Of a stretch of 64,000 nucleotides of DNA, positions 4,631 to 36,639 are shown in pieces. The stretch lies in contig JBLNEL010000329.1 in assembly GCA_050262615.1 (NCBI GenBank), positions 2,651 to 66,650 on the forward strand. The letters are read 5' to 3'. A program made the position numbers and the translations under genes. Source of the DNA: Bacillota bacterium. GTDB lineage: Bacteria > Bacteroidota > Ignavibacteria > Ignavibacteriales > SURF-24. The first letter of the stretch is position 1, and each line of letters begins with the position of its first letter. The notes beneath the pieces were generated by a model. The model was given only the letters and a program-made list of their open reading frames with translations, had not been told where the DNA came from and made no database searches.

Positions 4631-5442
4631 GATTTCCTGTAATACTTCATAGCTTCAGGCAGTTCATCCTTGATTTTATTTATTCTTGTCTGGTCAGACG
4701 GGTGAGTGCTTAAGAATTCCGGGGGGGCACCTTTTGACTGTGCTGCCATTTTCTGCCAGAAGCCTACGGCGCTATTTGGATCATAGCCAGCCATAGACAT
4801 AAATATAAGGCCTAAGCGGTCGGCTTCACTTTCCTGAGTACGGCTAAAAGGAAGAAGTACTCCAACCTGTGCGCCTAAGCCGAAGGCTGCCATGTAGAGC
4901 TGTTGAGTAGCCTGAGGTTTTGTTTTAATAGCTTCCTGAAGAGCGATGCCGCCCAGCTGTGCCAGAAGTCCCTGGCTCATTCTCTCGTCGCCATGTTTTG
5001 CAACTGCATGTGATATTTCATGTCCCATTACCACAGCAAGGCTTGCCTCGTCGCTTGCAAGCGGCAGTATTCCCGAATAAACGACTACTTTACCTCCAGG
5101 CATGCACCAGGCGTTTACCTGCGGGTCCTCTACAAGGTTAAATTCCCACTGATAGCCTTTTAATTCATCTGAAAGGTTATTCTGAGCAAAATACTGTTCA
5201 ACGGCTTTTTGTATTTTAGATCCGACACGTTTTACCATTTGTGCCTGATCGGTGCCGGTTACTACTTTGTGGCTTTTAATAAAGTCGCCATACTGCTGAA
5301 AGCTCATCGATAGCATTTGAGAATTAGGAACCAGATCCAACTGTCTTCTTCCTGTTAAAGGTACGGTACTGCATTCAACAAGAATTAGTGAAAACAGTAA
5401 AACTACCGGGTACAGCAGATATCTTGAAATTTTCATAATCAC
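4624..5442 (-). CDS. M48-family zinc metallopeptidase, probable lipoprotein
   Basis: HEISHAV zinc motif, downstream ESEADRLG and STHPSDQTRI. N-terminal signal with LVEC lipobox-like cysteine. Confidence 0.88.
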   Translation of the reverse strand: MIMKISRYLLYPVVLLFSLILVECSTVPLTGRRQLDLVPNSQMLSMSFQQYGDFIKSHKVVTGTDQAQMVKRVGSKIQKAVEQYFAQNNLSDELKGYQWEFNLVEDPQVNAWCMPGGKVVVYSGILPLASDEASLAVVMGHEISHAVAKHGDERMSQGLLAQLGGIALQEAIKTKPQATQQLYMAAFGLGAQVGVLLPFSRTQESEADRLGLIFMSMAGYDPNSAVGFWQKMAAQSKGAPPEFLSTHPSDQTRINKIKDELPEAMKYYRKSS

Positions 5443-7413: not shown

Positions 7414-9204
7414 ATGAAAATGAATTTCAGAAGCTTCAGGCCGGTGTCCGGTTTTCTATATCTAAGTATTTATTTACTGTTTTTTACAGTTTTAAGTGCG
7501 CAGACAGTAAAATTAAGAGTAATAGAGACAAGTGACGTTCATGGTGCAGTGTTTCCGTATGACTTCAAAAATGATAAAAAAGCCGCAACCTCACTCTCAC
7601 AGGTTTATTCTTATGTTCAGAAGGAAAGAAGCAAAAAAGATCAGGAAGTAATACTGCTTGACAACGGAGATATACTTCAGGGTCAGCCGGTAGTCTATTA
7701 TTATAATTTTGAGAAGACGAATGTCAGGCACATACTCTCCGAGGTGATGAACTTTATGAACTATGATGCTGCAACTATTGGTAATCACGATATTGAAGCA
7801 GGTCATCCTGTTTATGACCGTATAAATAAAGAATTCAAGTTTCCCTGGCTTGCAGCAAATTCAATAAATAAAAAAACAGGGAAGCCATATTTCAAGCCAT
7901 ACAAAATAATTAATAAAAAAGGGGTTAAAATAGCTGTCTTAGGGCTGATCACTCCTGCAATACCGAACTGGCTGCCGGAGAAGATATGGCAGGGAATTGA
8001 ATTTGAAGATATGATAGAGTCAGCAAAAAAGTGGGTTAAGACAATAAAGGAAAAAGAGAGAGCAGATCTTATAATCGGGCTTTTCCACTCGGGGGTTGAA
8101 TATGAATACAACAATCAGACAGCAGACATGCCGAGGAATGAAAATGCATCAAGGCTTGTAGCAGAGCGTGTACCTGGTTTTGATATTGTTTTTACAGGGC
8201 ATGATCACAAGATATGGAATATGAGCCTGAAGAATTCTGAAGGAAAGGAAGTTATTCTCTGCGGTCCTACAAGTGATGCCAGGACAGTTGCTTCGGTTGA
8301 AGTTAATCTTGATTATAACAAGAAGAGTCATCAGTGGGATAAAAAACTTAAGAGTGAGAGTGTTGAAATAAAGGATTACGAGCCGGACAGTTCATTTATG
8401 AAAAAGTTCACTCCTTCAATGAACGAGGTAAAGAGTTATGTTTCAAAGCCCATAGGAGTTTTTACAGAAGCCATATCAACCAGAGAGTCACTTTTTGGAA
8501 ATTCAGCTTTTATGGACATTATTCAATCGATACAGTTAGAACTTACCGGTGCTGATGTTTCATTTGCTGCGCCGCTTTCATTTGATACGAAAATAGACAA
8601 AGGTACTATTTATGTAAGGGACATGTTCAAGCTTTATAAATTTGAAAATCTTCTTTATACGATGACGCTAACAGGTCAGGAGATAAAGGATTTTCTGGAG
8701 CATTCATATTCACTCTGGTTTAATCAGATGAAAAATGAGAATGATCATCTTATCAATTTTAAGCTTGATAGTAACGGCAATCCCCTTCAGAACCAGCGGG
8801 ATGGAAATTATGAATTGAAAGCCCAGTATTATAATTTCGACTGTGCTGCAGGTATAAACTATACGGTAGATGTTTCAAAGCCTTCAGGCAGCAGAATAAA
8901 TATAATATCAATGTCAGATGGAAAGCCATTTGATCTTTCAAAAAACTATAAAGCTGCTGTAAACTCATACCGGGGCAATGGAGGCGGAGGACATTTAACT
9001 GAAGGGGCAAAGATAAACAAGGATGAACTTGCTTCAAGGGTTGTTAATTCAACTGAAAAAGACCTGCGCTATTTCCTGATGAAGTGGATTGAAAACAGCA
9101 AAACTGTAACGCCGAAAGCTTTGGGCAACTGGAAAGTTATTCCGGAGGAGTGGTGGAAAGATGCAAAGGAAAGAGACTATAGACTTCTTTACGGAAAGAA
9201 ATAG
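7414..9204 (+). CDS. Secreted bifunctional metallophosphatase / 5'-nucleotidase (UshA/CpdB-like)
   Basis: Signal peptide, then metallophosphoesterase motifs SDVHG, DNGDILQG, GNHDIEAG, GHDH. The C-terminal half is consistent with a 5'-nucleotidase substrate-binding domain (NSYRGNGGGG). Confidence 0.88.
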   Translation: MKMNFRSFRPVSGFLYLSIYLLFFTVLSAQTVKLRVIETSDVHGAVFPYDFKNDKKAATSLSQVYSYVQKERSKKDQEVILLDNGDILQGQPVVYYYNFEKTNVRHILSEVMNFMNYDAATIGNHDIEAGHPVYDRINKEFKFPWLAANSINKKTGKPYFKPYKIINKKGVKIAVLGLITPAIPNWLPEKIWQGIEFEDMIESAKKWVKTIKEKERADLIIGLFHSGVEYEYNNQTADMPRNENASRLVAERVPGFDIVFTGHDHKIWNMSLKNSEGKEVILCGPTSDARTVASVEVNLDYNKKSHQWDKKLKSESVEIKDYEPDSSFMKKFTPSMNEVKSYVSKPIGVFTEAISTRESLFGNSAFMDIIQSIQLELTGADVSFAAPLSFDTKIDKGTIYVRDMFKLYKFENLLYTMTLTGQEIKDFLEHSYSLWFNQMKNENDHLINFKLDSNGNPLQNQRDGNYELKAQYYNFDCAAGINYTVDVSKPSGSRINIISMSDGKPFDLSKNYKAAVNSYRGNGGGGHLTEGAKINKDELASRVVNSTEKDLRYFLMKWIENSKTVTPKALGNWKVIPEEWWKDAKERDYRLLYGKK

Positions 9205-23046: not shown

Positions 23047-24924
23047 TTAAATGCAGGCAGGAAGTTTAAATGAGAATTTACTTCCCTTTCCTATCCGGCT
23101 TTCCACCCAGATATCGCCGCCCTGTGAAATAACGAATTCTTTTGAAATTGCAAGTCCAAGTCCTCTTCCTGCTGGGTTCTGGTTACCGACCTGTACAAAT
23201 TTACTGAATATTTTCTCCTGATCCTCATCAGAAATTCCTGGTCCCTGGTCTATTACAGATACTATAACGGAACCGTTCTGTTTTTCTGCTATAATTTTAA
23301 TAGTTCCGTTTTCAGGAGTGTATCGTATAGCGTTATTGATCAGGTTTACGAGCACCCAGACAGTTTTTTCTATATCAGCATTAATAAAAGGAAGGTTATC
23401 GTCAATTTCAGTTTCAAGCTGAATTTTCTTTTCTGCAATAATCATAACCATAGCTACGGCAGCGTAGTCAATAATATCGGAGACAGAGATCTTTTCGATC
23501 TTAAGCTTTATATTTCCGGACTCGGCCTGTGAATAGTCGAGGAGTTCATTTACCATTTTTGAAAGGCGGCCTGTCTGCTGTCTTACTGTCTGGATTATCT
23601 GTTTCTGTTCTTCGTTAATATAGCCTACTTTATCATTTTCAAGCAGTTTAAGGCTTAAGTTAATTGAAGAGATCGGGGTTTTGAGCTCATGTGAGACAGT
23701 TGCAATAAGGTTTGTCTTAGCCGTATCGCGTTCTTCAAAACGTGTTACGTTCTTAAGCTCGAGCAGATAGCCTACAAGTCTGCCGCCTGTATCTTCCTGA
23801 ATTCTGATCTCAGTTACTTCCCTGCTGAAGTATGATTCTTTATTATTAAAATAGATATGGACCGGCGGTGCGGGGGGATTATTTCTTTCTTCTTTTGTCT
23901 GCAGGTCAACTGGCTGCAGGTTGTCGATATTTGAAGCAGGCATAAGGGTTTTTATCATTTCCCTCATCACGTCGTTATTTGCAGCAAGGTCGGGAGCATA
24001 CTTGCCAATTATCTCCTCTTTCACAGAGCCAATAATATCGAGGGCCACCTGGTTAGCAGAAATGATGAATTTATTCTCATCCAGGACAACAACAGCATCG
24101 CTGAAGCTGCCGATTGCAGATTCCATTCTTTTTTTTTCAATAAGCAGCTTATTAATATTATTCTTTTCATATTCTTTTAATTCAGCTGCCATATGATTAA
24201 AAGCTCTTGAAAGTTCGCCCAGTTCGTCTTTTGAGTGTATTGTAAGCTGCTGGTTATAATTTCCGTGAGAGATCTCAGTAATTTTTTTTATAAGCTCATT
24301 AACAGGGCGGACAAGGTAATTTGGAAGATATAGTATAAAGACAAGAGCAATAACAGAGCTTAAGGCGCTTATTACAAGCATATAAAAAGAGACTTTTGAA
24401 GCGGTATGAGAAGCCTGACTGTTTTTTCTGAGGACAGAGGTTGTATTAAGTTTATAAATATCGTTAAGAATATTCTGGACAGATTCATATTTATCAATAA
24501 GCTGAATACCGAATAGTTGTGTATCGGTCGCTTCAGAAGAATTTAATTTCTGAAGAACGGTTTTAAATTCAGAATAACTTTTTTTAAGTTCACCCACCAG
24601 TTCTGCTTCGCCTGCTTCGGTGAGGTTTCCTTCTTCAGCCTTCAGGTTTTTGTCAAACTCTTCAAGCTGAGTCTGAATTTCTTTTGTTCTGTTTATCAGT
24701 ACGTCGTGTTTAAGCAGGTCGCGTTCGGCATGCAGGCTATAGATCTGGTTAATTGCCCTGAGCATATTTGTAGCATATCTTGCCGAGGCGTAGTTATCTT
24801 CGATAATATGGCTGGAATCCGAAGCCAATTGCCTTATAAAGGATGAGCCCACAAGTCCAAGTCCTACAACGATCATAAATAAAAATGCGAGGGCCAGAAA
24901 TATTTTAGTCTTAAGTTTGTTCAT
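23047..24924 (-). CDS. Membrane sensor histidine kinase (periplasmic helical domain, HAMP, PAS, HisKA, HATPase_c)
   Basis: I prefer the start at 24924 (MNKLKTKIFLALAFLF...). It lies 1 nt after the stop of the upstream ORF (TAA-t-ATG). H-box TVSHELKTP. N/G boxes NLINNAIRYT, GRGLGL, GKGSKF. Confidence 0.88.
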   Translation of the reverse strand: MNKLKTKIFLALAFLFMIVVGLGLVGSSFIRQLASDSSHIIEDNYASARYATNMLRAINQIYSLHAERDLLKHDVLINRTKEIQTQLEEFDKNLKAEEGNLTEAGEAELVGELKKSYSEFKTVLQKLNSSEATDTQLFGIQLIDKYESVQNILNDIYKLNTTSVLRKNSQASHTASKVSFYMLVISALSSVIALVFILYLPNYLVRPVNELIKKITEISHGNYNQQLTIHSKDELGELSRAFNHMAAELKEYEKNNINKLLIEKKRMESAIGSFSDAVVVLDENKFIISANQVALDIIGSVKEEIIGKYAPDLAANNDVMREMIKTLMPASNIDNLQPVDLQTKEERNNPPAPPVHIYFNNKESYFSREVTEIRIQEDTGGRLVGYLLELKNVTRFEERDTAKTNLIATVSHELKTPISSINLSLKLLENDKVGYINEEQKQIIQTVRQQTGRLSKMVNELLDYSQAESGNIKLKIEKISVSDIIDYAAVAMVMIIAEKKIQLETEIDDNLPFINADIEKTVWVLVNLINNAIRYTPENGTIKIIAEKQNGSVIVSVIDQGPGISDEDQEKIFSKFVQVGNQNPAGRGLGLAISKEFVISQGGDIWVESRIGKGSKFSFKLPACI

Positions 24925-24925
24925 A

Positions 24926-25321
24926 TTATTTGCATTTCGTGTAAGGCGAAAAAATCTCATGTTTCCATTGGATTTCTTTCTGTTCTTCATAAAACTCTAA
25001 TGACAGATAGAATCCCAACTGCATAATTAATTTCTCCAGGCGTTCAATAATCTCATTATCCGGCAAGAAGTCCTGAGGAGCAGGCTTTATTACTCCGTCT
25101 AAATTATACCTTAAAGATAACTTATCTCCAACAATTCCGATAGTAAATAAGGTAAGATTTGAATCAGTATGCTTCCGGAATATGACTGTTGTGGTATGTT
25201 TATCAAAAACAGCTTCGGGAAATTCATTTTTTATGGATTTGAAGACTACAGTCAGGGCAGCTATTTTATCATATGAACGATCCTGAAGTAAAACAGAGTT
25301 AGACCGGGACAGGTTATTCAT
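24926..25321 (-). CDS. Hypothetical 131-aa cytoplasmic protein, first gene of the kinase/regulator operon
   Basis: Start taken at Met70 of the 200-aa ORF-track entry. Upstream of it lie a tandem repeat and the sigma-54 promoter. Tight coupling to the kinase start. No recognisable domain. Confidence 0.5.
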   Translation of the reverse strand: MNNLSRSNSVLLQDRSYDKIAALTVVFKSIKNEFPEAVFDKHTTTVIFRKHTDSNLTLFTIGIVGDKLSLRYNLDGVIKPAPQDFLPDNEIIERLEKLIMQLGFYLSLEFYEEQKEIQWKHEIFSPYTKCK

Positions 25322-25324
25322 ATC

Positions 25325-25369
25325 AGTTTTATTTCTTTTTACTTCGTTTCTTTTTTCTTCATTTCTTTT
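25325..25369. repeat. 15-bp tandem repeat x3 in the operon leader
   Basis: agttttatttctttt / tacttcgtttctttt / ttcttcatttctttt. If translated it gives the spurious KRNEEKRNEVKRNK. Confidence 0.8.
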
Positions 25370-25432
25370 TAATAATGTAAACAATTTCAATGATCCTTTC
25401 GATATTTGTTCAAGCCAAGCAATTTTACAGTG

Positions 25433-25448
25433 TGCTAAATGTGTGCCA
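25433..25448 (-). promoter_or_regulatory. Candidate sigma-54 (-24/-12) promoter of the hypothetical-kinase-bEBP operon
   Basis: The minus strand reads TGGCAC-acatt-TAGCA. GG-N10-GC spacing is exact, with a single mismatch to TGGCAC-N5-TTGCA. It lies about 110 nt upstream of the ATG at 25321. Confidence 0.6.
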
Positions 25449-25521
25449 TTGCGGTTAGAACAGTAATAAGGGGGATTTTCAAATAAAATAAGCAATGTTT
25501 TGTAATAGAGGCCAAGTGATG

Positions 25522-25558
25522 ATTCCAAAATGGAAGGCAGGCTTTCAAAATGAAATTA
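25522..25558. promoter_or_regulatory. Second pair of YCAAAATGRAA direct repeats; candidate UAS
   Basis: ccaaaatggaagg (25525-25537) and tcaaaatgaaatt (25545-25557) are 20 bp apart and 77-110 bp upstream of the 25448 promoter. The cores match the pair at 21592-21643. Confidence 0.4.
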
Positions 25559-25690
25559 ATAAAGCAGGTATTGATCAGCTGTATTGGCAAGTGCAGAGGC
25601 AGAGAACTCTTAAGGTCATCAACTTCTGCCGGTCCTTATATTTTTCTGCCGGGCAGGTCACAAGTGCTAAAATTACAACAATTTAGCCGA

Positions 25691-25767
25691 AAAAATGACT
25701 TATCAGTCTAATTTTGAGTTGATAATAAATAAAGCTTTTATTATGTTTGAACTCATCAGTCATTTTT
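25691..25767. promoter_or_regulatory. Palindromic motifs upstream of the hem cluster; candidate operator(s)
   Basis: GACTTATCAGTC (25697-25708) and aACTCATCAGTC (25750-25761) share the core ACTyATCAGTC. They are flanked by the 10-bp inverted repeat aaaaatgact (25691-25700) / agtcattttt (25758-25767). The ATG is at 25782. Confidence 0.3.
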
Positions 25768-25781
25768 CATGAAGAAAATCT

Positions 25782-26606
25782 ATGTATACTGCAGTTAAGA
25801 TCCTGAATGTACTTCTGCCCTTTTTCTATTGCTTAACATTTCTGGTTTATTTATATGATTTTGTTAAGGAAAAGAACAAGTTTGCCAATTCGAAAAGGAT
25901 ATTCTTATTTATAACGTTGCTGGTACATGCAATTTATCTATTGGCAAGGACTGTAGAGTTTAATCACCCGCCTATTACGAACGTATTTGAGATTTTCACA
26001 GTAATGGCATTTGCCATAAGCTGTTCATATTTTATACTGGAGCTTCTTACTGACATCAGGGGTACGGGGCTATTTATAATCATCTTTTCGATATTATTTC
26101 AGTTAGTTTCGTCCATTTTCATACCGGATCTTCTGCAGGTAAGAGAGGTTTTAAGGAACCGCATGTTAGGGCTGCATGTAATAAGTGCGCTTTTAGGCTA
26201 TTCGGGTATAACAATTTCTGCTGTCTACGGGCTGCTTTTCTGGTTATTATATAAAGAGATAAAGCTTAACAGGTTTGGGCTTATTTTCGAGCGTCTTCCC
26301 AGTCTGGATGTTCTGGAGCAGCTCAGTTACTATTCAGTTGTAATTGGTTTTGTACTTTTATCTGTAGCAATAACAATCGGGGTTATCTGGCTGCCATCGG
26401 CATTTCCAAATTTCAATTATTTTGATCCGAAGATTGTCGTTACGGGTCTAATCTGGCTTATTTATGGAGTAGGCATATTAAGTAAGACAGTTGGCGGGTG
26501 GCAAGGAAAGAAGGTTATTGTTTTTTCAATAGCAGGCTTTTTTCTCTCAATTTTTTCTATACTTTTGACGAATTTTCTGGCAAAGAGCTTTCACTCATTT
26601 TATTGA
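25782..26606 (+). CDS. HemX-like / CcsA-family cytochrome c assembly-type membrane protein
   Basis: 274 aa with about 8 TM helices, positioned immediately before hemA as B. subtilis hemX is. Confidence 0.75.
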   Translation: MYTAVKILNVLLPFFYCLTFLVYLYDFVKEKNKFANSKRIFLFITLLVHAIYLLARTVEFNHPPITNVFEIFTVMAFAISCSYFILELLTDIRGTGLFIIIFSILFQLVSSIFIPDLLQVREVLRNRMLGLHVISALLGYSGITISAVYGLLFWLLYKEIKLNRFGLIFERLPSLDVLEQLSYYSVVIGFVLLSVAITIGVIWLPSAFPNFNYFDPKIVVTGLIWLIYGVGILSKTVGGWQGKKVIVFSIAGFFLSIFSILLTNFLAKSFHSFY

Positions 26607-26630
26607 AAATGGTCAATTTCAAGCAAAATT

Positions 26631-27923
26631 ATGAATTTATTAGCAGTAAGTATTAATCATAGAACCGCGCCTGTTGAATTAAGGGAAAGTCTTCACTTAA
26701 GCCAGGATGAAATAAAGCAGATGCTGAAGGGGTTAAAAGATACGCTTTTCAGCGAAGGTTTTATTATCTCAACGTGCAACCGGACAGAGATCTATGGATT
26801 TCCGGTCAATCTACGCACCAATTTCAGGGATCTTCAGAAGTTCCTGATAGAAAACAAACATGTCGACGGCATTTCATCGGCCAACTTCCAGAACTTTTTT
26901 TCCTGCAGTGCAGTAAACCATTTATTTAAGGTAAGTGCCGGAATTGATTCGCTTTTACTTGGTGACAATCAGATCTTAGGGCAGGTAAAGGAATCTTTTC
27001 AGATTGCAGAGGATTTTGATTTTGCAGGATTTCTGATGAAGAGGGTCTTCGATTCAGCTATCAAGGTTGGAAAGCGTGCAAAAACCGAGACAGTTATAAG
27101 TGACGGAGCGATAACAGTAAGCTATGCTGCTGTTCAGCTGATTGAAAAAATATTTTCAAATCTCTCAAGAAAGTCAGCTCTGGTAATTGGGGCAGGAGAA
27201 ACCGGTGAGATTGCAGCAAAGCATCTGCATGATAAGGGCATAGGGAATCTAACAATAACAAACAGGACATTAAAAAAAGCTGAAAAGCTGGCTCAGACGG
27301 TACATGGCAGCATAATACCATATGAGTACTTTAAAGAGCAGCTTCATGATTTTGATATTGTTATAAGTGCCACAAGTGCCCCGGATCTTATACTGACATA
27401 CAGTGATGTTAAAGCGGCAATGAAAAAGCGAAGCAATTCTGCCACATGTATGATGGATATAGCTGTTCCCAGGGATATTGATCCCAAGGTGCGTGATCTG
27501 GACAATGTATTTTACCATGATATTGATTCCTTAAAGATCATAGTTGACCAGAATGTAAGGAAAAGGCAGTCGGAGGTTCCAAAGGTTCAGGCGATAATAA
27601 TGGAAGAGATGATAAATCTCTTCAGCTGGTATAACTCACTTGAAGTGACTCCGACAATAAAGCTTTTGCGTCAGCGATTTGAAGATATAAGGGCAGATGA
27701 GGTTGAAAAGCTTAAGAACAAATTCAGCAAGGAAGACATTGAAAAGCTTGATCTTGTGACGAAGAGGATCATAAATAAACTTCTGCACCAGCCCACAATG
27801 GAGTTAAAAAAGCTCTCTGAAAGCGGCACAGGTAAACAGGACTCTTCCATTAAGGTCAATGTACTAAGGAGTCTTTTTGGATTAGATGACTCATCCTCAG
27901 ACGGCAATGGTCAGGCAGAATAA
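26631..27923 (+). CDS. hemA: Glutamyl-tRNA reductase
   Basis: MNLLAVSINHRTAPVELRE, STCNRTEIY, NAD-binding VIGAGETGEIAAKHL. Confidence 0.95.
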   Translation: MNLLAVSINHRTAPVELRESLHLSQDEIKQMLKGLKDTLFSEGFIISTCNRTEIYGFPVNLRTNFRDLQKFLIENKHVDGISSANFQNFFSCSAVNHLFKVSAGIDSLLLGDNQILGQVKESFQIAEDFDFAGFLMKRVFDSAIKVGKRAKTETVISDGAITVSYAAVQLIEKIFSNLSRKSALVIGAGETGEIAAKHLHDKGIGNLTITNRTLKKAEKLAQTVHGSIIPYEYFKEQLHDFDIVISATSAPDLILTYSDVKAAMKKRSNSATCMMDIAVPRDIDPKVRDLDNVFYHDIDSLKIIVDQNVRKRQSEVPKVQAIIMEEMINLFSWYNSLEVTPTIKLLRQRFEDIRADEVEKLKNKFSKEDIEKLDLVTKRIINKLLHQPTMELKKLSESGTGKQDSSIKVNVLRSLFGLDDSSSDGNGQAE

Positions 27924-28015
27924 GGATCAGTAACTTAAAAGAAAGTAAGAGCAATTAAAATTCAGAACATCAAAAGAAATTCAGATAAAGGAATTCAATT
28001 AAACAAGAGGTTTTT

Positions 28016-28960
28016 TTGGCAAGGAAAACAACAATTGTAATAGGTTCACGCGGAAGCGAGCTTGCACTCTGGCAGTCGAACTTTATTAAAAAGGAAATCG
28101 AGAAGAAAAATAAGTCAATTGCAGTCGAGATAAAGCTTATAAAGACAAAAGGCGACAAGATACTGGATGTTGCACTTTCAAAGATTGGAGATAAGGGGCT
28201 TTTTACAAAAGAGCTGGAAGTTGAACTGCTGAATAAAAATGTGGACCTTGCCGTTCATAGTCTAAAGGATCTGCAGACAGATATACCAGAGGGGTTAAAG
28301 CTGGCTGCTGTAACCAAGCGTCATCCGGTAGAGGATGTACTGATCGGGCGTAAAAAGAAGCTGACCATTTATGATCTGAAAGAAGGTGCTACAGTTGCAA
28401 CGGGGTCATTAAGAAGAAGGTCGCAGCTTTTACACATAAGGCCGGATATTAAGATTGAAGAGTTAAGGGGGAATGTTCCAACAAGGATAAAGAGGTTTCT
28501 TGAGTCGGACTGGGATGCAATTATTCTCGCAAGGGCCGGAGTTGAAAGGCTGGGGTTAAAGAAATACATATCGTCATACATACCAACAGATGATATACTT
28601 CCGGCAGTAGGTCAGGGAGCGCTTGGGCTTGAGATACATACAGACAATAAGATGGTTGAAGAAATACTTCAGTCGGTTCATGATGAAGCCACCTATCAGG
28701 CTGCGATAGCTGAACGTGCATTCTTAAAGGCTCTTGAAGGGGGATGTCAGGTGCCGATTGGTGCATTTGCAGAAGTAAGGACAAATGGAATTTACCTTGA
28801 CGGCATTGTAGGGGCAATAGACGGGAGCATTACTTTCAGAAAGAAATTAAGAGGAAGTAAAAAAGAACCGGATAAACTAGGCAAGCAATTAGCAAAGGAA
28901 CTTAAAAAAGCCGGAGCTGATAAAGTATTAAAAGAAATTTATAAAGCAGTCAGGATATAG
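28016..28960 (+). CDS. hemC: Hydroxymethylbilane synthase (porphobilinogen deaminase)
   Basis: IGSRGSELALWQ, HSLKDL, RGNVPTRI, QGALGLE, LEGGCQVPIGA. TTG start with SD aagagg 5 nt upstream. There is no in-frame ATG alternative. Confidence 0.95.
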   Translation: MARKTTIVIGSRGSELALWQSNFIKKEIEKKNKSIAVEIKLIKTKGDKILDVALSKIGDKGLFTKELEVELLNKNVDLAVHSLKDLQTDIPEGLKLAAVTKRHPVEDVLIGRKKKLTIYDLKEGATVATGSLRRRSQLLHIRPDIKIEELRGNVPTRIKRFLESDWDAIILARAGVERLGLKKYISSYIPTDDILPAVGQGALGLEIHTDNKMVEEILQSVHDEATYQAAIAERAFLKALEGGCQVPIGAFAEVRTNGIYLDGIVGAIDGSITFRKKLRGSKKEPDKLGKQLAKELKKAGADKVLKEIYKAVRI

Positions 28961-29030
28961 TTTTTCTGTCAGGTTTTCATAATCAGAATATAGTTTTCTT
29001 AAAAAGAATCAAAATCAGAGTTTAGTCACT

Positions 29031-30431
29031 TTGCAGCTTACAAAAAAAATAGAGTTAAAGAAAAGCAGAAAAAGAGAAAAGATAATTGAAGCAGCTTCAG
29101 AGCTTTTCTCACAGAAGAATTTCCACGAAGTAATGATGGAAGATGTAGCCAGGCTTGCTTCGATTGCAAAGGGGACGCTTTATAATTATTTTAATTCGAA
29201 AGAGGACCTCTACTTCTCCATTATGGTAATAAGAATGGAGAATCTGATCAACTCTTTAAGGGAAAGAATAAAGAAAGAAATAACAGCAGTAGATTCACTT
29301 CATAGTTTTGTTATACATAACTACATGTTCATGGTTAAATACAGCTGTTTTTTTCTTATGTTTCAGCGCGACAAGCTTACAGCTGAAAACAGTATATGCG
29401 AAGAGTTCAGGCAGAAAAAGTCAGAGCTTAAAGACCTGCTAAAAAATATTGTAGTCTGCGGAAAAGAAGAAAAGCTTTTCAGGAATATTGATACAGAATT
29501 TGTATGCGACCTTGTCTTAGGAAGCATTTACGGAGCTGTTGACCGTGCAATAGACAATAAGTCAGCAGCAGAGGCTTTAGAAGATGAGCGTCAGAGTCTG
29601 TTTGATTTTATATTAAAAGGTGTTTCGAGTGAACGCTCAGATGGAAGGTTAAAAGAAGTGCTTCCGTTAAGAAACAGAAATATCGTAATTGCAAGAAGTC
29701 TGGAGGATTCAGCTGATTCGGCAGAATTGTTCAGACAAAAAGGTGCTTTTGTTATCAGTTTTCCGACTCTTGAGATCGTGCCTTCAGATTCCATAGCCGA
29801 ATTAGACACACTGCTCAATGGTAAAATAGATATAATAATCTTTACCTCTGCCAGCAGTGTAAGGATGTTCATAAAAAGAATTGCTGAGACCGGTCAGAAG
29901 GTGAGCTATGAAAAGATAAAGGTCATAGCGATAGGAAAAAAGTCAGCCTTAGTATGTGAAAAAAATGGTATTCCTGTCAGTTTTATACCAAAGGAATTTT
30001 CAGCCAGAGGGCTTATCAGCGAACTTTCATCAAATGATGTTGAAGGGAAAGTAATTTTAATTCCATCTTCGGCGATTGGAAGAGATGAACTGCCGGAAGC
30101 GTTAAAAAAGATGGGTGGAATTGTAAGAGCGCCTGTTGTATACAATGCAGTTATTCCCTCAGAAGAAGCACTTAAAAGGCCAATGGAATTATTAAAAGGT
30201 TTAAGTCCCGAGGCGTATATTTTTACAAGTCCTTCATCGTTCAGGAATTTTCTTGAAATAATGAAAATAGCTGAACCAAAAGATTACTTTAACGGAACTG
30301 CCATTGCGGCAATTGGTCCAACGACAAAGGTCGAGATAGAGGCAAGCGGATTAAGAGTTGAGATAATGCCGGAGGAATATACGATGGATGGGCTCTTAAG
30401 GGCTTCAATAAGTTTTTTTAATGAAAAATAA
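29031..30431 (+). CDS. hemD: Fusion protein: full-length TetR-family regulator (about aa 1-205) + uroporphyrinogen-III synthase (about aa 210-466)
   Basis: N-terminal half: KIIEAASELFSQKNFHEVMMEDVARLASIAKGTLYNYFNSKEDLY (TetR HTH) plus a helical ligand-binding-type region. C-terminal half: NIVIARS, IIIFTSASSV, IAIGKKSA, VYNAV, IFTSPSS, IAAIGPTT (HEM4 domain). It is one uninterrupted ORF with a TTG start. Confidence 0.85.
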   Translation: MQLTKKIELKKSRKREKIIEAASELFSQKNFHEVMMEDVARLASIAKGTLYNYFNSKEDLYFSIMVIRMENLINSLRERIKKEITAVDSLHSFVIHNYMFMVKYSCFFLMFQRDKLTAENSICEEFRQKKSELKDLLKNIVVCGKEEKLFRNIDTEFVCDLVLGSIYGAVDRAIDNKSAAEALEDERQSLFDFILKGVSSERSDGRLKEVLPLRNRNIVIARSLEDSADSAELFRQKGAFVISFPTLEIVPSDSIAELDTLLNGKIDIIIFTSASSVRMFIKRIAETGQKVSYEKIKVIAIGKKSALVCEKNGIPVSFIPKEFSARGLISELSSNDVEGKVILIPSSAIGRDELPEALKKMGGIVRAPVVYNAVIPSEEALKRPMELLKGLSPEAYIFTSPSSFRNFLEIMKIAEPKDYFNGTAIAAIGPTTKVEIEASGLRVEIMPEEYTMDGLLRASISFFNEK

Positions 30432-30505
30432 AAATTGATGAAAATTAAGTATAGAAAAACAAATTGATGAAAAAACAAATTTTGAGATAATTTAAGGAAA
30501 ATATA

Positions 30506-31555
30506 TTGAATCTGAAGAACGATCTATTTTTAAGAGCATGCAGACGTCAGGCGGTTGAAAGGACACCGGTATGGATCATGCGTCAGGCAGGAAGGTATCT
30601 GCCTGAATACAGGGCAGTAAGAGAGAAAGCTGATTTCCTTACGATGTGCAAGACTCCGGAGCTTGCCTCAGAAGTAACGCTTCAGCCGATTGACATACTT
30701 GGGACAGATGCAGCGATTATTTTTTCAGATATACTTGTAATTCCAGAAGCAATGGGGATGCATCTAGAAATGCACGAAGGAAAAGGTCCGATATTTCATA
30801 ATCCGGTAAGGTCATCAGAAGATGTAAAAAGTCTGAAAGAGATTGATCCCACGGTTGATCTAAAGTATGTTTTAGATGCAGTTGAATTAACAAAGAAAGA
30901 ATTAAACGGAAGGGTTCCCTTAATTGGTTTCAGCGGGTCGCCCTGGACGCTTTTAACATATATGGTCGAAGGCAGGGGTTCGAAGAATTTTTCCTTTGTA
31001 AAGAAGATGATATATAATGATCCTGCACTTGCGCACAGGCTGCTTGATAAAATTTCAAAAGCTGTAGCTGATTATCTTTCGGCCAAGATAGCATCAGGAG
31101 TAAATGCCATACAGATCTTTGATACATGGGGCGGAATACTTTCGCAGAAAGACTTCAGGGAATTTTCGCTTCAATACATAACAAAAGTAATTTCGGAGAT
31201 AAAGAAAAACGATGAGCCTGTAATAGTATTTGCCAAGGGAGTGCATTATAATCTTCAGGATATTATAAATTCAGGAGCTGATGTGCTTGGAATGGACTGG
31301 ACAATGGATTTAGGAGAAGTAAGAAAGCAAATTCAGGATAAAGCAGCGCTTCAGGGTAATATGGATCCATGTGTTCTTTATGCCGGTAAAGAAAACATAC
31401 GCAAAGAAGTAATAAAGGTGCTTGAGTCATACGGCAATGGAAGCGGGCATATATTTAATTTAGGGCACGGGATACTGCCGGATGTTGATCCGGAAAATGC
31501 AAAGGCGCTGGTTCAGTTTGTAAAAGAAGAAAGCAAAAAGTTTCACACGAAATAA
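30506..31555 (+). CDS. hemE: Uroporphyrinogen decarboxylase
   Basis: NDLFLRACRRQAVERTPVWIMRQAGRYLPEYR aligns residue for residue with the canonical HemE N-terminus, which forces the TTG start at 30506. Confidence 0.95.
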   Translation: MNLKNDLFLRACRRQAVERTPVWIMRQAGRYLPEYRAVREKADFLTMCKTPELASEVTLQPIDILGTDAAIIFSDILVIPEAMGMHLEMHEGKGPIFHNPVRSSEDVKSLKEIDPTVDLKYVLDAVELTKKELNGRVPLIGFSGSPWTLLTYMVEGRGSKNFSFVKKMIYNDPALAHRLLDKISKAVADYLSAKIASGVNAIQIFDTWGGILSQKDFREFSLQYITKVISEIKKNDEPVIVFAKGVHYNLQDIINSGADVLGMDWTMDLGEVRKQIQDKAALQGNMDPCVLYAGKENIRKEVIKVLESYGNGSGHIFNLGHGILPDVDPENAKALVQFVKEESKKFHTK

Positions 31556-31686: not shown

Positions 31687-33084
31687 ATGTTTCAGATAGA
31701 TTTAGATAAAGTAAGAAAATATGATAAACCGGGGCCAAGGTACACAAGCTATCCGACGGCTCCACAGTTTAATGAAAGTTTCAGGCATGAGCAGTACCTG
31801 GATGAAATAATAAAAACAAATTACGTATCAGATCCTACAAGTGCAGTCAGCACTTTGCCTGATATTTCGTTATACTATCATATTCCCTTCTGCGACACGC
31901 TTTGTTATTTCTGCGGCTGCAATATGCTTATTACGCGCAACCGTGAAAGAGTAAAAGAATATGTGAAGTATTTAAAGAAAGAGATTGATCTTTTGCGGAC
32001 ATATATACTGCCCGATAGGAAAGTCACACAGCTGCACTGGGGCGGCGGCACACCGACGCATCTTGATCCGGATGAAATTCAGGATCTTATAAAGTACATC
32101 AGTCAATCTTTTGATTTTAAGTCAGAGATTGAAGCCGGCTGTGAGATTGATCCGCGCGGGCTTACAAGAGAGCACTTAGAAGCTCTGCGCCAAGGTGGCT
32201 TTAACAGAATAAGCATGGGAGTGCAGGACTTTAATGAAAAAGTTCAGAAGGCAGTAAACAGAATTCAGCCTGAAGATATAACGCGTCAGACTGTAAACTG
32301 GGTAAGGGAGCTTGGATTCAACAGTATAAATCTTGATCTTATGTACGGCTTGCCGTTTCAGAGTGCAGAGACATTCGGTGCTACGGTTGACAAGGTAATT
32401 GACATATCGCCCGACAGGATAGCGGTTTTTAATTATGCACATGTTCCATGGATGAAAAAGCATATGGCATTAATTCATCCTGAGGATCTTCCGGCGCCTG
32501 AAGAAAAGCTGCAGATATTAAAAATGACTGTTGAGAAGTTAACCTCAGCAGGGTATGTATTTATAGGTATGGATCACTTTGCAAAGCCTGATGATGAGCT
32601 TGCAGCGGCATTCAGGGAAAAGAAGCTTTACAGGAACTTCCAGGGCTACAGCACTAATGCAGGAGCTGATCTGTATGCAATGGGAATAACGGCAATAAGT
32701 CAGCTGCAGAGGATATATGCACAGAACTTCAAGACTGAGAAAGAATACTTTGCAGCTTTAGATGAAAACATACTGCCGGTTGCAAAAGGCTATTACTTAA
32801 ATGAAGATGACTTACTGCGCCGCAGTGTAATAATGAGGCTTATGTGCGACTTTGAGCTAAACATACCGAAGTTTGAAAAAGAGCATAACATTAATTTCAG
32901 AGAGTACTTTGCCTGGGGATTAAATAATCTTAAGCCTTTAGAAGAAGACAACCTGGTAGTGCTTACAGAAGATGATATAAAGGTAACTGAAATGGGAAGG
33001 CTTCTTGTAAGGAATATTGCGATGAACTTTGACGGATACATTGAAAGGAAGGAAGACACGGCAAGATACTCTAGAACTGTTTAA
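31687..33084 (+). CDS. hemN: Oxygen-independent coproporphyrinogen III oxidase (radical SAM)
   Basis: GPRYTSYPTAPQF, HIPFCDTLCYFCGCN (CxxxCxxC). At 465 aa it has true HemN length rather than that of HemW. Confidence 0.93.
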   Translation: MFQIDLDKVRKYDKPGPRYTSYPTAPQFNESFRHEQYLDEIIKTNYVSDPTSAVSTLPDISLYYHIPFCDTLCYFCGCNMLITRNRERVKEYVKYLKKEIDLLRTYILPDRKVTQLHWGGGTPTHLDPDEIQDLIKYISQSFDFKSEIEAGCEIDPRGLTREHLEALRQGGFNRISMGVQDFNEKVQKAVNRIQPEDITRQTVNWVRELGFNSINLDLMYGLPFQSAETFGATVDKVIDISPDRIAVFNYAHVPWMKKHMALIHPEDLPAPEEKLQILKMTVEKLTSAGYVFIGMDHFAKPDDELAAAFREKKLYRNFQGYSTNAGADLYAMGITAISQLQRIYAQNFKTEKEYFAALDENILPVAKGYYLNEDDLLRRSVIMRLMCDFELNIPKFEKEHNINFREYFAWGLNNLKPLEEDNLVVLTEDDIKVTEMGRLLVRNIAMNFDGYIERKEDTARYSRTV

Positions 33085-33115: not shown

Positions 33116-33157
33116 AGTTGACAGGTGGATTCTTAAAAATAATTGAAAGGGCGCTGT

Positions 33158-34114
33158 ATGAATGGGACTGCTGTTGTATTGTTTAATTTGGGAGGACCGG
33201 ATTCTTTAGAGGCGGTTCAGCCATTTCTGGCTAACCTGTTTAGCGACAGGGATATTTTTAAACTGCCGTTCCAGGATTTCATGGCAAATTTCATTGCAAG
33301 GAAAAGAGCTCCGAAAGTAATAGAAGAATACAAACTAATAGGCGGCAAGTCGCCAATTGGATATTGGACAGAGATCCAAAGGAAAATGCTTGAAGAAAGG
33401 CTGCGCCGTTTTAATCCTGATATCGATGTATACACAGCCATGCGCTACTGGCATCCGCTTACAAAAGCAGTGGCAGAAGATGTTCAGAAAAGGAACTATC
33501 AGAGAATTGTTCTTCTGCCGCTCTATCCGCATTACTCAGTTTCAACCACCGGGTCATCTTTTAATGAATGGAAAAGAGAGTATAAAGGCGATCAGTCGAA
33601 ATTGCTTTATATAAACGAATACTCTACAAATGCGACCTATGTCCGTGCAATAAATCAGAGGATAGACGAGGCGTTATTAAAATTTCCGGAACAGGTACGA
33701 AGTCAGGTGCAGTTAGTATTCAGTGCCCATGGCACTCCGGTCAGTTATGTAAAAAAAGGTGATCCTTACAGCAAGCAGATAAAGCAGACAGTTTCACATA
33801 TAATGAAGCTTAGGGGTAATTCGCATGAATATCATGAATGTTACCAGAGTAAAGTTGGTCCGGTAAAGTGGCTTGAACCGGCAACAGACAAAATGATTGA
33901 GGAACTTGCATCAAAGGGGAAAAAGCACTTATTATTAATTCCAATAAGTTTTGTTTCCGATCATGTTGAAACGCTTTTTGAGCTGGGCATTGAATATAAG
34001 CATGTTGCCGACAAAGTTGGAATTGAGAACTATATAGTAATGACAGGGCTGAATGATTCGCCTCTATTTGCAGATGCTTTAAGCGAAGTAGTAAATCAGG
34101 TTTTTACAGAATAA
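33158..34114 (+). CDS. hemH: Ferrochelatase
   Basis: VVLFNLGGPDSLEAVQPFLANLFSDRDI, YWHPL, LLPLYPHYS, FSAHG. I prefer the ATG at 33158 over the ORF-track TTG at 33143. Confidence 0.93.
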   Translation: MNGTAVVLFNLGGPDSLEAVQPFLANLFSDRDIFKLPFQDFMANFIARKRAPKVIEEYKLIGGKSPIGYWTEIQRKMLEERLRRFNPDIDVYTAMRYWHPLTKAVAEDVQKRNYQRIVLLPLYPHYSVSTTGSSFNEWKREYKGDQSKLLYINEYSTNATYVRAINQRIDEALLKFPEQVRSQVQLVFSAHGTPVSYVKKGDPYSKQIKQTVSHIMKLRGNSHEYHECYQSKVGPVKWLEPATDKMIEELASKGKKHLLLIPISFVSDHVETLFELGIEYKHVADKVGIENYIVMTGLNDSPLFADALSEVVNQVFTE

Positions 34115-34187
34115 AAACAGAATTAGAAAAAAAACAAGAACACAGAGTTGTGTTTTGTTAAGAGATAAATACAGGAAAAGGAAGAGA

Positions 34188-35561
34188 ATGGCTAAAAAAA
34201 TTGTTGTACTTGGTGCAGGGATTTCCGGACTAGCTGCAGCTTACTGGCTTAAAAAAGAAGGACTCGAGGTAATTGTTCTCGAGAAAAATCCTGAAGCAGG
34301 CGGGGCAATGATCAGCAGCCATGAGAATGGATACATGGTCGATTATGGTCCAAACAGCGGGCTTGAGACCACTCCTTTGATTTCGCAGCTTGTAGAAGAA
34401 GTTGGTCTTAAAGGTCAGATGATCTATGCCAACGAGGAGGGCAACAGAAGATATATTTTAAGAGACGGAGAGCTTCATGCCCTGCCGATGAGTCCGCCTG
34501 CATTTATTAAAACAAAGCTTTTTTCGACTGGAGCCAAATTAAGGTTATTTGCAGAGCCATTTATCGGAAGGTCGGAGGACGGGTATTATCAGAGCATTTC
34601 TCAATTTGTTTCAAGGAGGCTCGGTCAGGAATTTTTAGACTATGCAATTAACCCATTTGTTGCCGGCGTATATGCCGGCAATCCGGATGAGCTGAGTGTA
34701 AAGTCGGCATTTCCGAAGCTATACAGGCTTGAGGAAAAATACGGCGGACTTATAAAGGGTATGATAAAAGGCGCAAAGGAAAGAAAGCAGCGCAACGAGG
34801 AATCGAAGCAAAGTGCAAAGATGTTCTCCTTTACAGACGGAATGCAGACATTTCCTAAGGCAATTGCCGGCAATTTAGGCGAGAGGGTTATTTTCAATGC
34901 AGAGGTTAAAAAAATAAAAAGGTCAGGGGGCTGTTACATAATAAACTACAGTCAGAACGGATCAGAGAAATTCATAGAGACTGAAGTTATAATTTCAACA
35001 CTTCCTGCGCACATAGCCTGTTACTTATTTGAAGAATTTGACGACAAGCTATATGGTCATCTGAAATCTCTATATTATCCGCCTGTAAAGGTTTTGTACC
35101 TTGGATATGAGAAGTCCTCGATCGGAAGGCCGCTTGATGGTTTTGGTTTTCTTATACCGCAAAAAGAAAAAAAGTCCTTTTTAGGGGCCATATGGAGTTC
35201 AGTAATATTTAAGAACAGGGCACCTGAAGGCATAGCGGCTTTCACCTTATTTATAGGCGGAGCGCGTTCGCCGGAGTTATTTGAAGTTGATGAAAAGCAA
35301 TTAAATCAAAAAGTCCTGAGTGAATTTCATGAAATAATGAAAATTTCAAAGCCGCCGGTCTTTAAGGCCGAAAGGATGTGGCCCAAGGCAATTCCGCAGT
35401 ACAATATCGGCTACATTGAGCATGAAAGGTATTTTGACCAATTTGAAGAAGCGCACAAAGGAATAATCTTAAGCGGAAATTTCAGAGGTGGAATTTCAGT
35501 CGGTGACTGCGTTAAAAATTCAGAAGCAGTTTATAAGAAAGCATTAGCATTGCTTTCGTAG
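34188..35561 (+). CDS. hemY: FAD-dependent protoporphyrinogen/coproporphyrinogen oxidase (HemY type)
   Basis: KIVVLGAGISGLAAAYWLKKEGLEVIVLEKNPEAGG dinucleotide fold. I prefer the ATG at 34188 (purine-rich SD) over the TTG at 34155. Confidence 0.9.
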   Translation: MAKKIVVLGAGISGLAAAYWLKKEGLEVIVLEKNPEAGGAMISSHENGYMVDYGPNSGLETTPLISQLVEEVGLKGQMIYANEEGNRRYILRDGELHALPMSPPAFIKTKLFSTGAKLRLFAEPFIGRSEDGYYQSISQFVSRRLGQEFLDYAINPFVAGVYAGNPDELSVKSAFPKLYRLEEKYGGLIKGMIKGAKERKQRNEESKQSAKMFSFTDGMQTFPKAIAGNLGERVIFNAEVKKIKRSGGCYIINYSQNGSEKFIETEVIISTLPAHIACYLFEEFDDKLYGHLKSLYYPPVKVLYLGYEKSSIGRPLDGFGFLIPQKEKKSFLGAIWSSVIFKNRAPEGIAAFTLFIGGARSPELFEVDEKQLNQKVLSEFHEIMKISKPPVFKAERMWPKAIPQYNIGYIEHERYFDQFEEAHKGIILSGNFRGGISVGDCVKNSEAVYKKALALLS

Positions 35562-35652: not shown

Positions 35653-36639
35653 ATGGCTAATTATCCAACAAAAAGATTAAGGCGTCTGCGTTATAATCCA
35701 GTGATCCGGGATATGATCAGGGAAACAAGTCTTGAGAAAAATGATCTGATTTATCCGCTTTTTGTCGTTCATGGCAAGAACGTTAAAAACGAGATAAAGT
35801 CAATGCCCGGGGTATATCAGTTATCGATTGATCTTCTGATCGAAGAATGCAGGGAAGTTAAATCCTTAGGTATTCCCGCGGTACTTCTTTTTGGTATTCC
35901 AGCGCACAAGGATGAAAAAGGAAGCGAGGCATATGATCCAAATGGAATTATTCAGCAGGCAGTCAGGGCAATAAAGGAAAGCGTTCCGGGACTGCTTGTT
36001 ATTACAGATGTTTGTCTATGTGAATACACTTCTCATGGGCATTGCGGGGTCTTAAACGGTGAAGAGATATTAAATGATGAGACAGTTTCGCTGCTTGCAA
36101 AAGAAGCTGTTTCGCATGCTGAAGCAGGAGCTGATATAATAGCTCCTTCAGATATGATGGACGGGCGGATTGCCTCGATCAGGAAAGCGCTTGACTATAA
36201 AGGATTCAGCAAGGTTCCAATAATGAGCTATGCAGCAAAGTATGCCTCAGGGTTTTACGGACCGTTCAGGGAGGCTGCCGAGTCGACTCCGGCCTTTGGC
36301 GACAGGCGTTCGCACCAGATGGATTCAGGAAATGCTGAAGAGGCTTTAAGGGAAGTTGAAACTGACATTGAAGAAGGTGCTGATTTTGTAATGGTGAAGC
36401 CTGCCGGGGCATATCTGGATATTATTTACCGGGTAAAGGAGAGATTCGGACTTCCGACGGCAGCTTATCAGGTAAGCGGTGAATACTCGATGATAAAGGC
36501 AGCTTCAAAGCTTGGCTGGATAGATGAAGAAAGAGTAATGGTTGAATCTGTAATGGCAATAAAGCGTGCCGGAGCAGATATCATACTTACCTATTTTGCC
36601 AAGGATATTGCAAGATACATAGATAAGGCCAGAAAATAG
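35653..36639 (+). CDS. hemB: Porphobilinogen synthase (ALA dehydratase), Zn-type
   Basis: [25 protein letters not shown], cysteine-rich Zn site [14 protein letters not shown], active-site region MVKPA. Confidence 0.95.

Follow-up and report, generated by a model that had tools for sequence, protein, structure and literature searches.

We analyzed a stretch of 64,000 nucleotides (contig JBLNEL010000329.1 of GenBank assembly GCA_050262615.1, hereafter called the window) that carries a haem biosynthesis operon, and found that the gene located at the position of hemD, here designated tetR::hemD, encodes a TetR-family regulator joined in frame to uroporphyrinogen-III synthase (U3S, the HemD protein). 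This is a true fusion, and it occupies the hemD slot between hemC and hemE. In our judgement, tetR::hemD probably encodes an autoregulated repressor of the hem operon that also serves as the HemD of the pathway, and it would have originated from the fusion of adjacent genes. The prediction that tetR::hemD regulates hem transcription is well supported by the sequence comparisons described below, from which we also infer DNA binding, repression, HemD activity, and a ligand. More generally, a TetR protein encoded at the hemC/hemD junction is most likely a dedicated regulator of the hem operon in several lineages of the FCB (Fibrobacteres, Chlorobi, and Bacteroidetes) group.

The tetR::hemD gene is a single unbroken open reading frame (ORF) with a TTG start codon, and the N-termini of homologous proteins line up with this start in an alignment. 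Pfam searches divided the 466-aa product into a complete TetR protein, a linker of 13 residues, and a complete HemD (Table 1); the matches to TetR_N (PF00440, 55.1 bits) and HEM4 (PF02602, 171 bits) were both above the cut-offs. An earlier note on this DNA had claimed an uninterrupted TetR-HemD fusion and proposed these two families as a check, and both the fusion and the sequence motifs that it quoted (IIIFTSASSV, IAIGKKSA, IFTSPSS, and IAAIGPTT, among others) were found in the protein. Its further statement that the gene follows hemC in the hemD slot, with no other hemD in the cluster, agreed with the Pfam assignments of the neighboring genes and with tblastn searches using either half as the query, which detected neither another hemD nor another TetR anywhere in the 64 kb. 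An AlphaFold2 model of the full-length protein, built with 32 homologues (mean predicted local distance difference test score (pLDDT), 85.5), consisted of nine helices (residues 2-198), a low-confidence linker (approximately residues 199-215), and two alpha/beta lobes. No fixed orientation between the domains is predicted, as indicated by the predicted template modeling score (pTM) of 0.56, and a Foldseek structure search returned no solved chain spanning the TetR and HemD halves together. In a 32-sequence alignment, the DNA-binding domain was the best conserved part (mean pairwise identity, 76%), ahead of HemD (61%), the ligand domain (56%), and the linker (31%), suggesting that the strongest constraint acts on the DNA-binding domain. 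No Met or other start codon was conserved in the linker among the aligned homologues, and synthesis of a separate HemD from an internal start was rejected for this reason; the lone in-frame GTG, at 29655, is not conserved and could still be used.

A sequencing or assembly error that erased a stop codon or a frame shift between two genes would also create such an ORF, and a related lineage does carry tetR and hemD as two genes, the stop codon of the first overlapping the start codon of the second. However, contigs of three separate, independent SRA assemblies encode the identical 466-aa protein, and full-length homologues numbering in the hundreds, with identities as low as 48%, align continuously over the junction. 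These two observations refute an artefact, to which we assign a negligible chance.

In the survey of orthologues that the earlier note had proposed, the fusion was conserved. The 120 best homologues, named members of which were mostly metagenome-assembled genomes (MAGs) of Ignavibacteria, all contained PF00440 and PF02602 and shared 48-62% identity with the query over 95-100% coverage, with lengths of 456-504 aa. A second homologue search gave 705 clusters (90% identity) at E ≤ 1e-50; the further 120 members listed were full length, and no cultured isolate was found by name among the matches listed. A metagenome scan confirmed 326 loci. Furthermore, a profile search against 1.84 billion representatives retrieved approximately a dozen clusters of close fusions, distant fusions of high GC content (P0163, P0170, P0184, P0198, P0203, and P0226), and stand-alone TetR orthologues (P0245 and P0251); according to their source names, the high-GC fusions come from Candidatus Eisenbacteria/Latescibacterota and the stand-alone TetRs from 'Bacteroidota bacterium' MAGs. 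Thus, the idea that the fusion is a rarity of one genome did not hold, since it is standard in much of Ignavibacteria and occurs also in Eisenbacteria/Latescibacterota MAGs. The earlier note had further considered that the fusion might prove to be a common, already annotated architecture devoid of DNA binding. The architecture is indeed common and is labeled 'uroporphyrinogen-III synthase/AcrR family transcriptional regulator' by the Joint Genome Institute (JGI); the DNA-binding domain is its best conserved segment. In NCBI records, the identical protein (P0001) carries the label 'MAG: ... [Bacillota bacterium]', and the labels of close relatives read Syntrophomonadaceae or Acidobacteriota. 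These MAG labels probably reflect mis-binning or mis-classification, because the relatives are overwhelmingly from Ignavibacteria and the promoter described below has the Bacteroidota-type -7 box TAnnTTTG.

The N-terminal half has the sequence and the fold of the TetR family, with a helix-turn-helix (HTH) motif above the gathering score, helices 4-9 present, and a weak Pfam match to TetR_C_24 at residues 85-166. The Bacillus FadR profile of NCBIfam (NF053878) aligned with it from end to end (residues 12-199 to positions 2-189 of 190), and the score of 73.9 bits against the equivalog cut-off of 200 indicates that it is not a FadR. In a PDB sequence search, its nearest solved relatives were acyl-CoA-binding TetRs of the FadR/YsiA type (3whb/3whc, 1vi0, 5gp9/5gpa/5gpc, and 3anp), which gave the best match to residues 10-198 in both sequence and structure, and Foldseek comparison with whole FadR chains (3whb/3whc, 5gp9, and 1vi0) gave template modeling (TM) scores of 0.73-0.76. 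Like FadR/YsiA, which are dimeric repressors of palindromic operators, the TetR half shows a nine-helix architecture and a TetR_C_24-type ligand domain. Unlike FadR, it carries a C-terminal enzyme and lies in the context of haem synthesis instead of fatty-acid degradation, and the candidate operator TGACY-N4-RGTCA described below is not the FadR box. The TetR half is predicted to be a dimeric, DNA-binding, and ligand-gated repressor. The recognition helix contains five residues (K47, G48, Y51, K57, and Y61) that do not vary in any lineage, from 39% to 70% GC, and the helix sequence AKGT-YNYF-SKE-LY is unchanged in Ignavibacteria, high-GC, and unfused lineages, in parallel with the conserved TGAC/GTCA half-sites.

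HrtR of Lactococcus and FhtR of Enterococcus are TetR-family regulators of haem homeostasis with a tetrapyrrole ligand; they differ from the present protein in that they stand alone and control haem efflux pumps, not biosynthesis. We considered an HrtR-like haem sensor and do not favor it, because proteins of the FadR/YsiA type gave the nearest matches to the TetR half; since the FadR equivalog cut-off was failed too, the protein is probably neither. HrtR was outside the 60 best of 146 PDB sequence matches. His96 and Cys123 were also candidates for universal haem ligands until distant lineages were added: H96 is kept in at least 90% of the sequences and replaced in P0198, and C123 is conserved in Ignavibacteria only, so that an HrtR-like haem-ligating pair is not supported.

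As for the C-terminal half, HEM4 matched residues 231-456 over profile positions 4-230 of 231 (E = 2.7e-50, 171.1 bits against a cut-off of 27.5). Foldseek comparison with the U3S structures 1jr2, 3re1, 4es6, and 3mw8 gave TM scores of 0.69-0.76 (E values of 1e-9 to 2e-11) and revealed the two alpha/beta lobes and the two-stranded hinge of the HemD fold. The active-site cleft of U3S contains a conserved Tyr (in 'VY') and conserved Ser/Thr residues (in 'FTSxS' and 'IGPTT'). In an alignment with human U3S, Y371 corresponded to the Tyr of 'TVYQTV', FTSPS to 'FFSPSG', and AIGPTT to 'AAIGPTT', and Y371, S400, S402, G429, and T432 were invariant in all fused lineages examined. The HemD half is presumably the U3S enzyme of the pathway. 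The alternative that it is a catalytically dead sensor, with the real HemD encoded elsewhere, would be compatible with our view of the genome being limited to 64 kb and with a score of 120 bits versus 246, which is below the narrow equivalog cut-offs of NCBIfam. However, the full fold is present with 171 bits for HEM4, the Tyr and Ser/Thr motifs common with human U3S are invariant, the half sits in the exact slot of the stand-alone hemD of TetR-less relatives, and no other hemD was found within the operon in any of approximately 80 loci, all of which makes a dead HemD highly improbable. One of the proteins most closely related to the HemD half (P0125, 571 aa) contains two tandem HemD domains and no TetR.

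The tetR::hemD gene belongs to a co-directional cluster in the order of a CcsA/HemX-like gene (hereafter hemX), hemA, hemC, tetR::hemD, hemE, hemN, hemH, hemY, and hemB. Two 14-bp palindromes of the form TGAC(C/T)-N4-(G/A)GTCA flank the promoter of the first gene, and these candidate operators are referred to as O1 (distal) and O2 (proximal). The motifs at 25691-25767 that the earlier note had pointed out as possible binding sites are real; they form an inverted pair (25691-25707 and 25751-25767) and represent a pair of putative operators whose place on the hem promoter is conserved. TAnnTTTG with TTG approximately 20 nt away is the Bacteroidota sigma-A promoter consensus in the literature on Bacteroides and Flavobacterium, and if this consensus applies, O2 over the transcription start and O1 flanking the -33 element would constitute a classical repression geometry. 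The exact pattern TGACNATNAGT occurs six times in the window against 4.4 expected and is not over-represented, so that the pattern is significant for where it lies and for being conserved from locus to locus, and not for its number in the window. The other two hits of the operator position weight matrix (PWM) in the window, at 5115 and 51493, are inside ORFs and look like chance, and they were discarded as regulon members. A CRP/FNR-type site was also rejected, as the half-site spacing is TGA-N8-TCA here and TGA-N6-TCA in the CRP/FNR consensus. No Rfam match was found in 25300-30600 at E ≤ 1, by which an RNA element in the leader or the junction was rejected. The spacer between O1 and O2 is spanned by an AT-rich imperfect palindrome (25715-25755; TGAGTTGATAATAAATAAA / TTTATTATGTTTGAACTCA, 74% complementary, with AAAGCTTT at its center).

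We then examined the conservation of the operators in Ignavibacteria by aligning 36 distinct upstream regions, in which the intergenic DNA was otherwise diverged. The proximal site was present as nnAC-N6-GTCA in 32 of the 36 regions, with TAnnTTTG directly 5' of it in almost all 32, and the distal TGACY-N4-RGTCA was present in 30, at 70-95 nt upstream of the start codon. O1 and O2 were separated by 52-53 bp in 19 of 26 loci, by 43-44 bp in five, and by 65 and 113 bp in one each; the spacings near five or four whole helical turns hint that two dimers bind the same face of the DNA or cooperate. When the PWM was applied to 804 kb of loci, 64 of the 73 hits with at least 12 bits fell in the 160 nt preceding the first hem gene, and the remaining nine were scattered. 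In a locus with a different gene order (L069), both sites were located upstream of hemC instead. The locus of a complete Ignavibacterium sp. MAG (L007, CP070637.1) contains a gap of 100 N (8810-8909) at the hemC start and promoter, which splits the hemC call and makes this locus uninformative for the operator.

Loci with an unfused TetR or a high GC content, none of which was used to build the PWM, served as test loci. In every one of them that covers the DNA in question, the best PWM score of the entire 8-17 kb locus fell on the site upstream of hemX. Bacteroidota MAGs with 49% GC (L088 and L099-101) possess a separate tetR between hemC and hemD, and TAAGATTG followed by GAACTGACTGGTCAGTAC upstream of hemX. 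The gene order in the unfused lineage is hemX-hemA-hemC-tetR-hemD-hemE-hemN-hemH-hemY-hemB-hemL, and in L088 and L099 the stop codon of tetR (201-215 aa) overlaps the start codon of hemD (267 aa) as ATGA. The high-GC loci (67-70% GC; L092/93, L102, and L103) possess the fused gene and (G/A)AACTGAC(C/T)GGTCAGTCA upstream of hemX. In the RIFOXY/GWA2 MAGs of Ignavibacteria (L095-97, approximately 36% GC), which have a stand-alone hemD and no TetR in an otherwise identical operon, no site of at least 9 bits was found within 300 nt upstream of hemX. Because the unfused TetR is accompanied by the same type of operator, the tether appears not to be needed for regulation. In a crude neighbor-joining tree without support values, one fused protein was placed among unfused ones, suggesting that fusion or fission possibly took place more than once. 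In another lineage with a separate TetR (56% GC), the ORF that follows encodes a HemD::HemE fusion (L090:2050-3060), in which HemD runs straight into the N-terminal motif of URO-D, RTPVWMMRQAGRYLPQY.

On these grounds, a TetR dimer is proposed to bind O1 just upstream of the -33 element and O2 against the -7 box, over the transcription start. The bound dimer would repress hemX-hemA-hemC-(tetR::hemD)-hemE-hemN, and probably hemH-hemY-hemB, and the circuit would be one of negative autoregulation. A small molecule in the FadR-like pocket is expected to alter the affinity for DNA, and a tetrapyrrole or pathway intermediate is our guess for this molecule, while the C-terminal half would provide the U3S activity of the pathway. 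The fusion would have arisen from neighboring, translationally coupled tetR and hemD genes, in this order, which are still separate in related Bacteroidota. Since the fusion fixes the repressor and HemD at a ratio of 1:1, the operon would be held in check by the level of an enzyme that it encodes itself. U3S works fast, and small amounts of it suffice, which may be why HemD, of all hem enzymes, tolerates production at the level of a repressor.

Several points weigh against this proposal. The assignment of the operator to the protein is based on co-occurrence, with approximately five lineages having both and one having neither, and the promoter elements were assigned by consensus alone. As the matrix had been trained on the Ignavibacteria sites, the enrichment of PWM hits in that group is partly circular. 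The arrangement of the sites varies from two separated 14-mers in Ignavibacteria to one composite GAAC-TGAC-NN-GTCA-GTCA site with two overlapping registers elsewhere, and neither candidate haem ligand, H96 or C123, is universal. As approximately 8 kb on either side of each gene was seen, other regulators, other targets, or a second hemD may be present elsewhere. Moreover, a repressor present in as many copies as an enzyme might be expected to shut the operon permanently, which would call for weak binding or an abundant inducer.

In another explanation, the TetR half no longer regulates transcription and is a dimerization or ligand-binding (allosteric) module for the enzyme only, and the palindromes are read by some other factor; in its favor, enzymes are usually more abundant than repressors. 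However, the HTH is the best conserved part with invariant recognition-helix residues, and palindromes of the size of a TetR operator co-occur with TetR and are missing where TetR is missing. The TGA-N8-TCA spacing is also unlike that of CRP/FNR (TGA-N6-TCA). We thus consider a purely enzymatic role of the TetR half to be quite improbable.

Another possibility is that the tether itself is functional. The HemD lobes could act as a sensor of occupancy by hydroxymethylbilane or uroporphyrinogen III, or as a bridge between the dimers on O1 and O2, which are approximately 52 bp apart. In the form of a trigger enzyme, the HemD half would be the input; hydroxymethylbilane or uroporphyrinogen III would close the hinge, the closure would be relayed to the TetR dimer, and the TetR pocket would be secondary. 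Retention of the fusion in several deep lineages is consistent with such a relay, and the overlapping, probably co-translated tetR and hemD genes of the unfused loci give a hint of physical partnership. The position of the single fused protein in the crude tree, which leaves room for repeated fusion or fission, points in the same direction, and the hinge states of U3S vary widely, as the same model showed root-mean-square deviations of 4-10 Å from different U3S crystal forms. However, the linker is short, floppy, and variable with low model confidence, the pTM shows no sign of a fixed interface, and the TetR ligand domain is complete and 56% conserved, suggesting that it has kept its own function. 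In addition, an unfused form exists and has the same operator, so that regulation can dispense with the tether. We therefore regard both the functional tether in general and the trigger enzyme in particular as unlikely. If the tether did work in this way, the cell would sense flux at the point where the toxic uroporphyrinogen I could be produced instead, and would set the transcription of all pathway genes accordingly; we know of no TetR-family trigger enzyme described before.

The autoregulated repressor that we favor resembles BirA (biotin ligase), PutA (proline dehydrogenase), and NadR in that one polypeptide joins a DNA-binding domain to an enzyme from the pathway under control, with the candidate operator on the hem promoter in this case. 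In contrast, BirA, PutA, and NadR use winged-helix or ribbon-helix-helix folds, and the catalytic state has been proven to control DNA binding in them. Also unlike in these proteins, the regulator exists as a separate protein with the same operator in relatives, and coupling is consequently not obligatory. HemD is a frequent fusion partner in tetrapyrrole clusters, as in CobA/uroporphyrinogen methyltransferase-HemD, HemD-HemX ('PRK06975'), and HemC-HemD; P0193 and 500-aa matches in our profile search were of the methyltransferase-HemD type. The partners in those fusions are enzymes or membrane proteins and not a transcription factor. In hemAXCDBL of Bacillus subtilis, a CcsA-family hemX adjoins hemA, and hemC and hemD follow in one operon. 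The order in the window differs in being hemX-hemA, and to our knowledge neither a TetR gene nor a TGAC/GTCA operator is known in the B. subtilis operon.

The earlier note was aware of no characterized TetR-HemD fusion, and our literature searches likewise yielded no paper describing one: full-text searches found no description of a TetR-HemD protein or of any TetR that controls hem operons in the phyla considered here. Term look-ups in an Ignavibacteria phylogenomics paper and in a 2026 review on haem biosynthesis gave no mention of TetR-HemD, and HemH-HemQ was the sole fusion that they showed in the review. Thus, as far as we found, the architecture is already annotated automatically, and its function and operator are undescribed.

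Transcriptional control of haem biosynthesis is known in a few Proteobacteria and Firmicutes, and we know of no dedicated haem-biosynthesis regulator described for Bacteroidota, Ignavibacteria, or the FCB group. A concrete candidate regulator, operator, and promoter geometry are now in hand for the hem operon, and the natural fused, unfused, and absent variants make the question of regulation directly testable. If the tether is functional, the protein would add a TetR-family member to the short list of enzymes that repress their own pathway and would provide the engineered production of tetrapyrroles with a compact, self-limiting control module. If the tether is an accident of gene fusion, a new and widely distributed family of hem-operon repressors would still remain.

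The features of the window are summarized in Table 1. The HemX-like gene heads the operon in all syntenic loci, and its product scored 113 bits, under the cut-off, against TIGR03144.

Table 1. Features of the hem operon, its promoter region, and the TetR-HemD protein in the window
Feature	Residues	Position (strand)	Evidence or remark
Distal operator O1, TGACTTATCAGTCT		25696-25709	Predicted; TGACY-N4-RGTCA, approximately 10 nt upstream of -33 TTG
Putative -33 element, TTG		25719-25721 (+)	20 nt upstream of -7 box; read from sequence
Putative -7 box, TATGTTTG		25742-25749 (+)	Consensus TAnnTTTG
Proximal operator O2, GAACTCATCAGTCA		25749-25762	Predicted; first base common with -7 box; spans expected transcription start
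Start codon of first gene, ATG		25782 (+)	
CcsA/'cytochrome c assembly' family (HemX-like) membrane protein, 274 aa		25782-26606 (+)	PF01578, E = 9e-25
hemA, glutamyl-tRNA reductase		26631-27923 (+)	GlutR_N, Shikimate_DH, GlutR_dimer
hemC, porphobilinogen deaminase		28016-28960 (+)	Porphobil_deam, Porphobil_deamC
tetR::hemD	1-466	29031-30431 (+)	One unbroken ORF
TetR half	1-198	29031-29624 (+)	HTH and helical ligand/dimerization domain
TetR HTH	18-62	29082-29216 (+)	TetR_N, E = 6e-15, 55.1 bits against cut-off of 24
Linker	199-211	29625-29663 (+)	pLDDT approximately 56
HemD half and stop codon	212-466	29664-30431 (+)	Uroporphyrinogen-III synthase, HEM4
hemE, uroporphyrinogen decarboxylase		30506-31555 (+)	URO-D, E = 2e-143
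hemN-type radical-SAM coproporphyrinogen dehydrogenase		31687-33084 (+)	Radical_SAM, HemN_C
hemH, ferrochelatase		33143-34114 (+)	Ferrochelatase, E = 5e-107
hemY-type FAD oxidase (protoporphyrinogen or coproporphyrinogen oxidase)		34155-35561 (+)	Amino_oxidase, E = 1e-48
hemB, porphobilinogen synthase		35653-36639 (+)	ALAD, E = 7.5e-156; last co-directional gene

Divergent from the hem promoter are a 200-aa ORF (24926-25528, minus strand) with no match in Pfam or NCBIfam and then a HAMP-PAS-HisKA-HATPase sensor kinase gene (23047-24990, minus strand). This pair adjoins the operon in L004 also; as the upstream genes differ in other loci, it is probably unrelated to the operator. In most Ignavibacteria loci, and in 51 of 87 loci altogether, an ORF of approximately 200 aa is located between hemC and tetR::hemD (for example, L007:9379-9987 and L016:7345-7992), and it is absent from the window. 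The encoded protein has a signal peptide, a lipobox-like Cys, and a conserved C-terminal 'GIKxW...YVW...G..ML/IIDP..G', and with no Pfam or NCBIfam match it represents an unknown family embedded in haem operons. In one genome, five tandem copies of this ORF lie between hemC and a stand-alone hemD.

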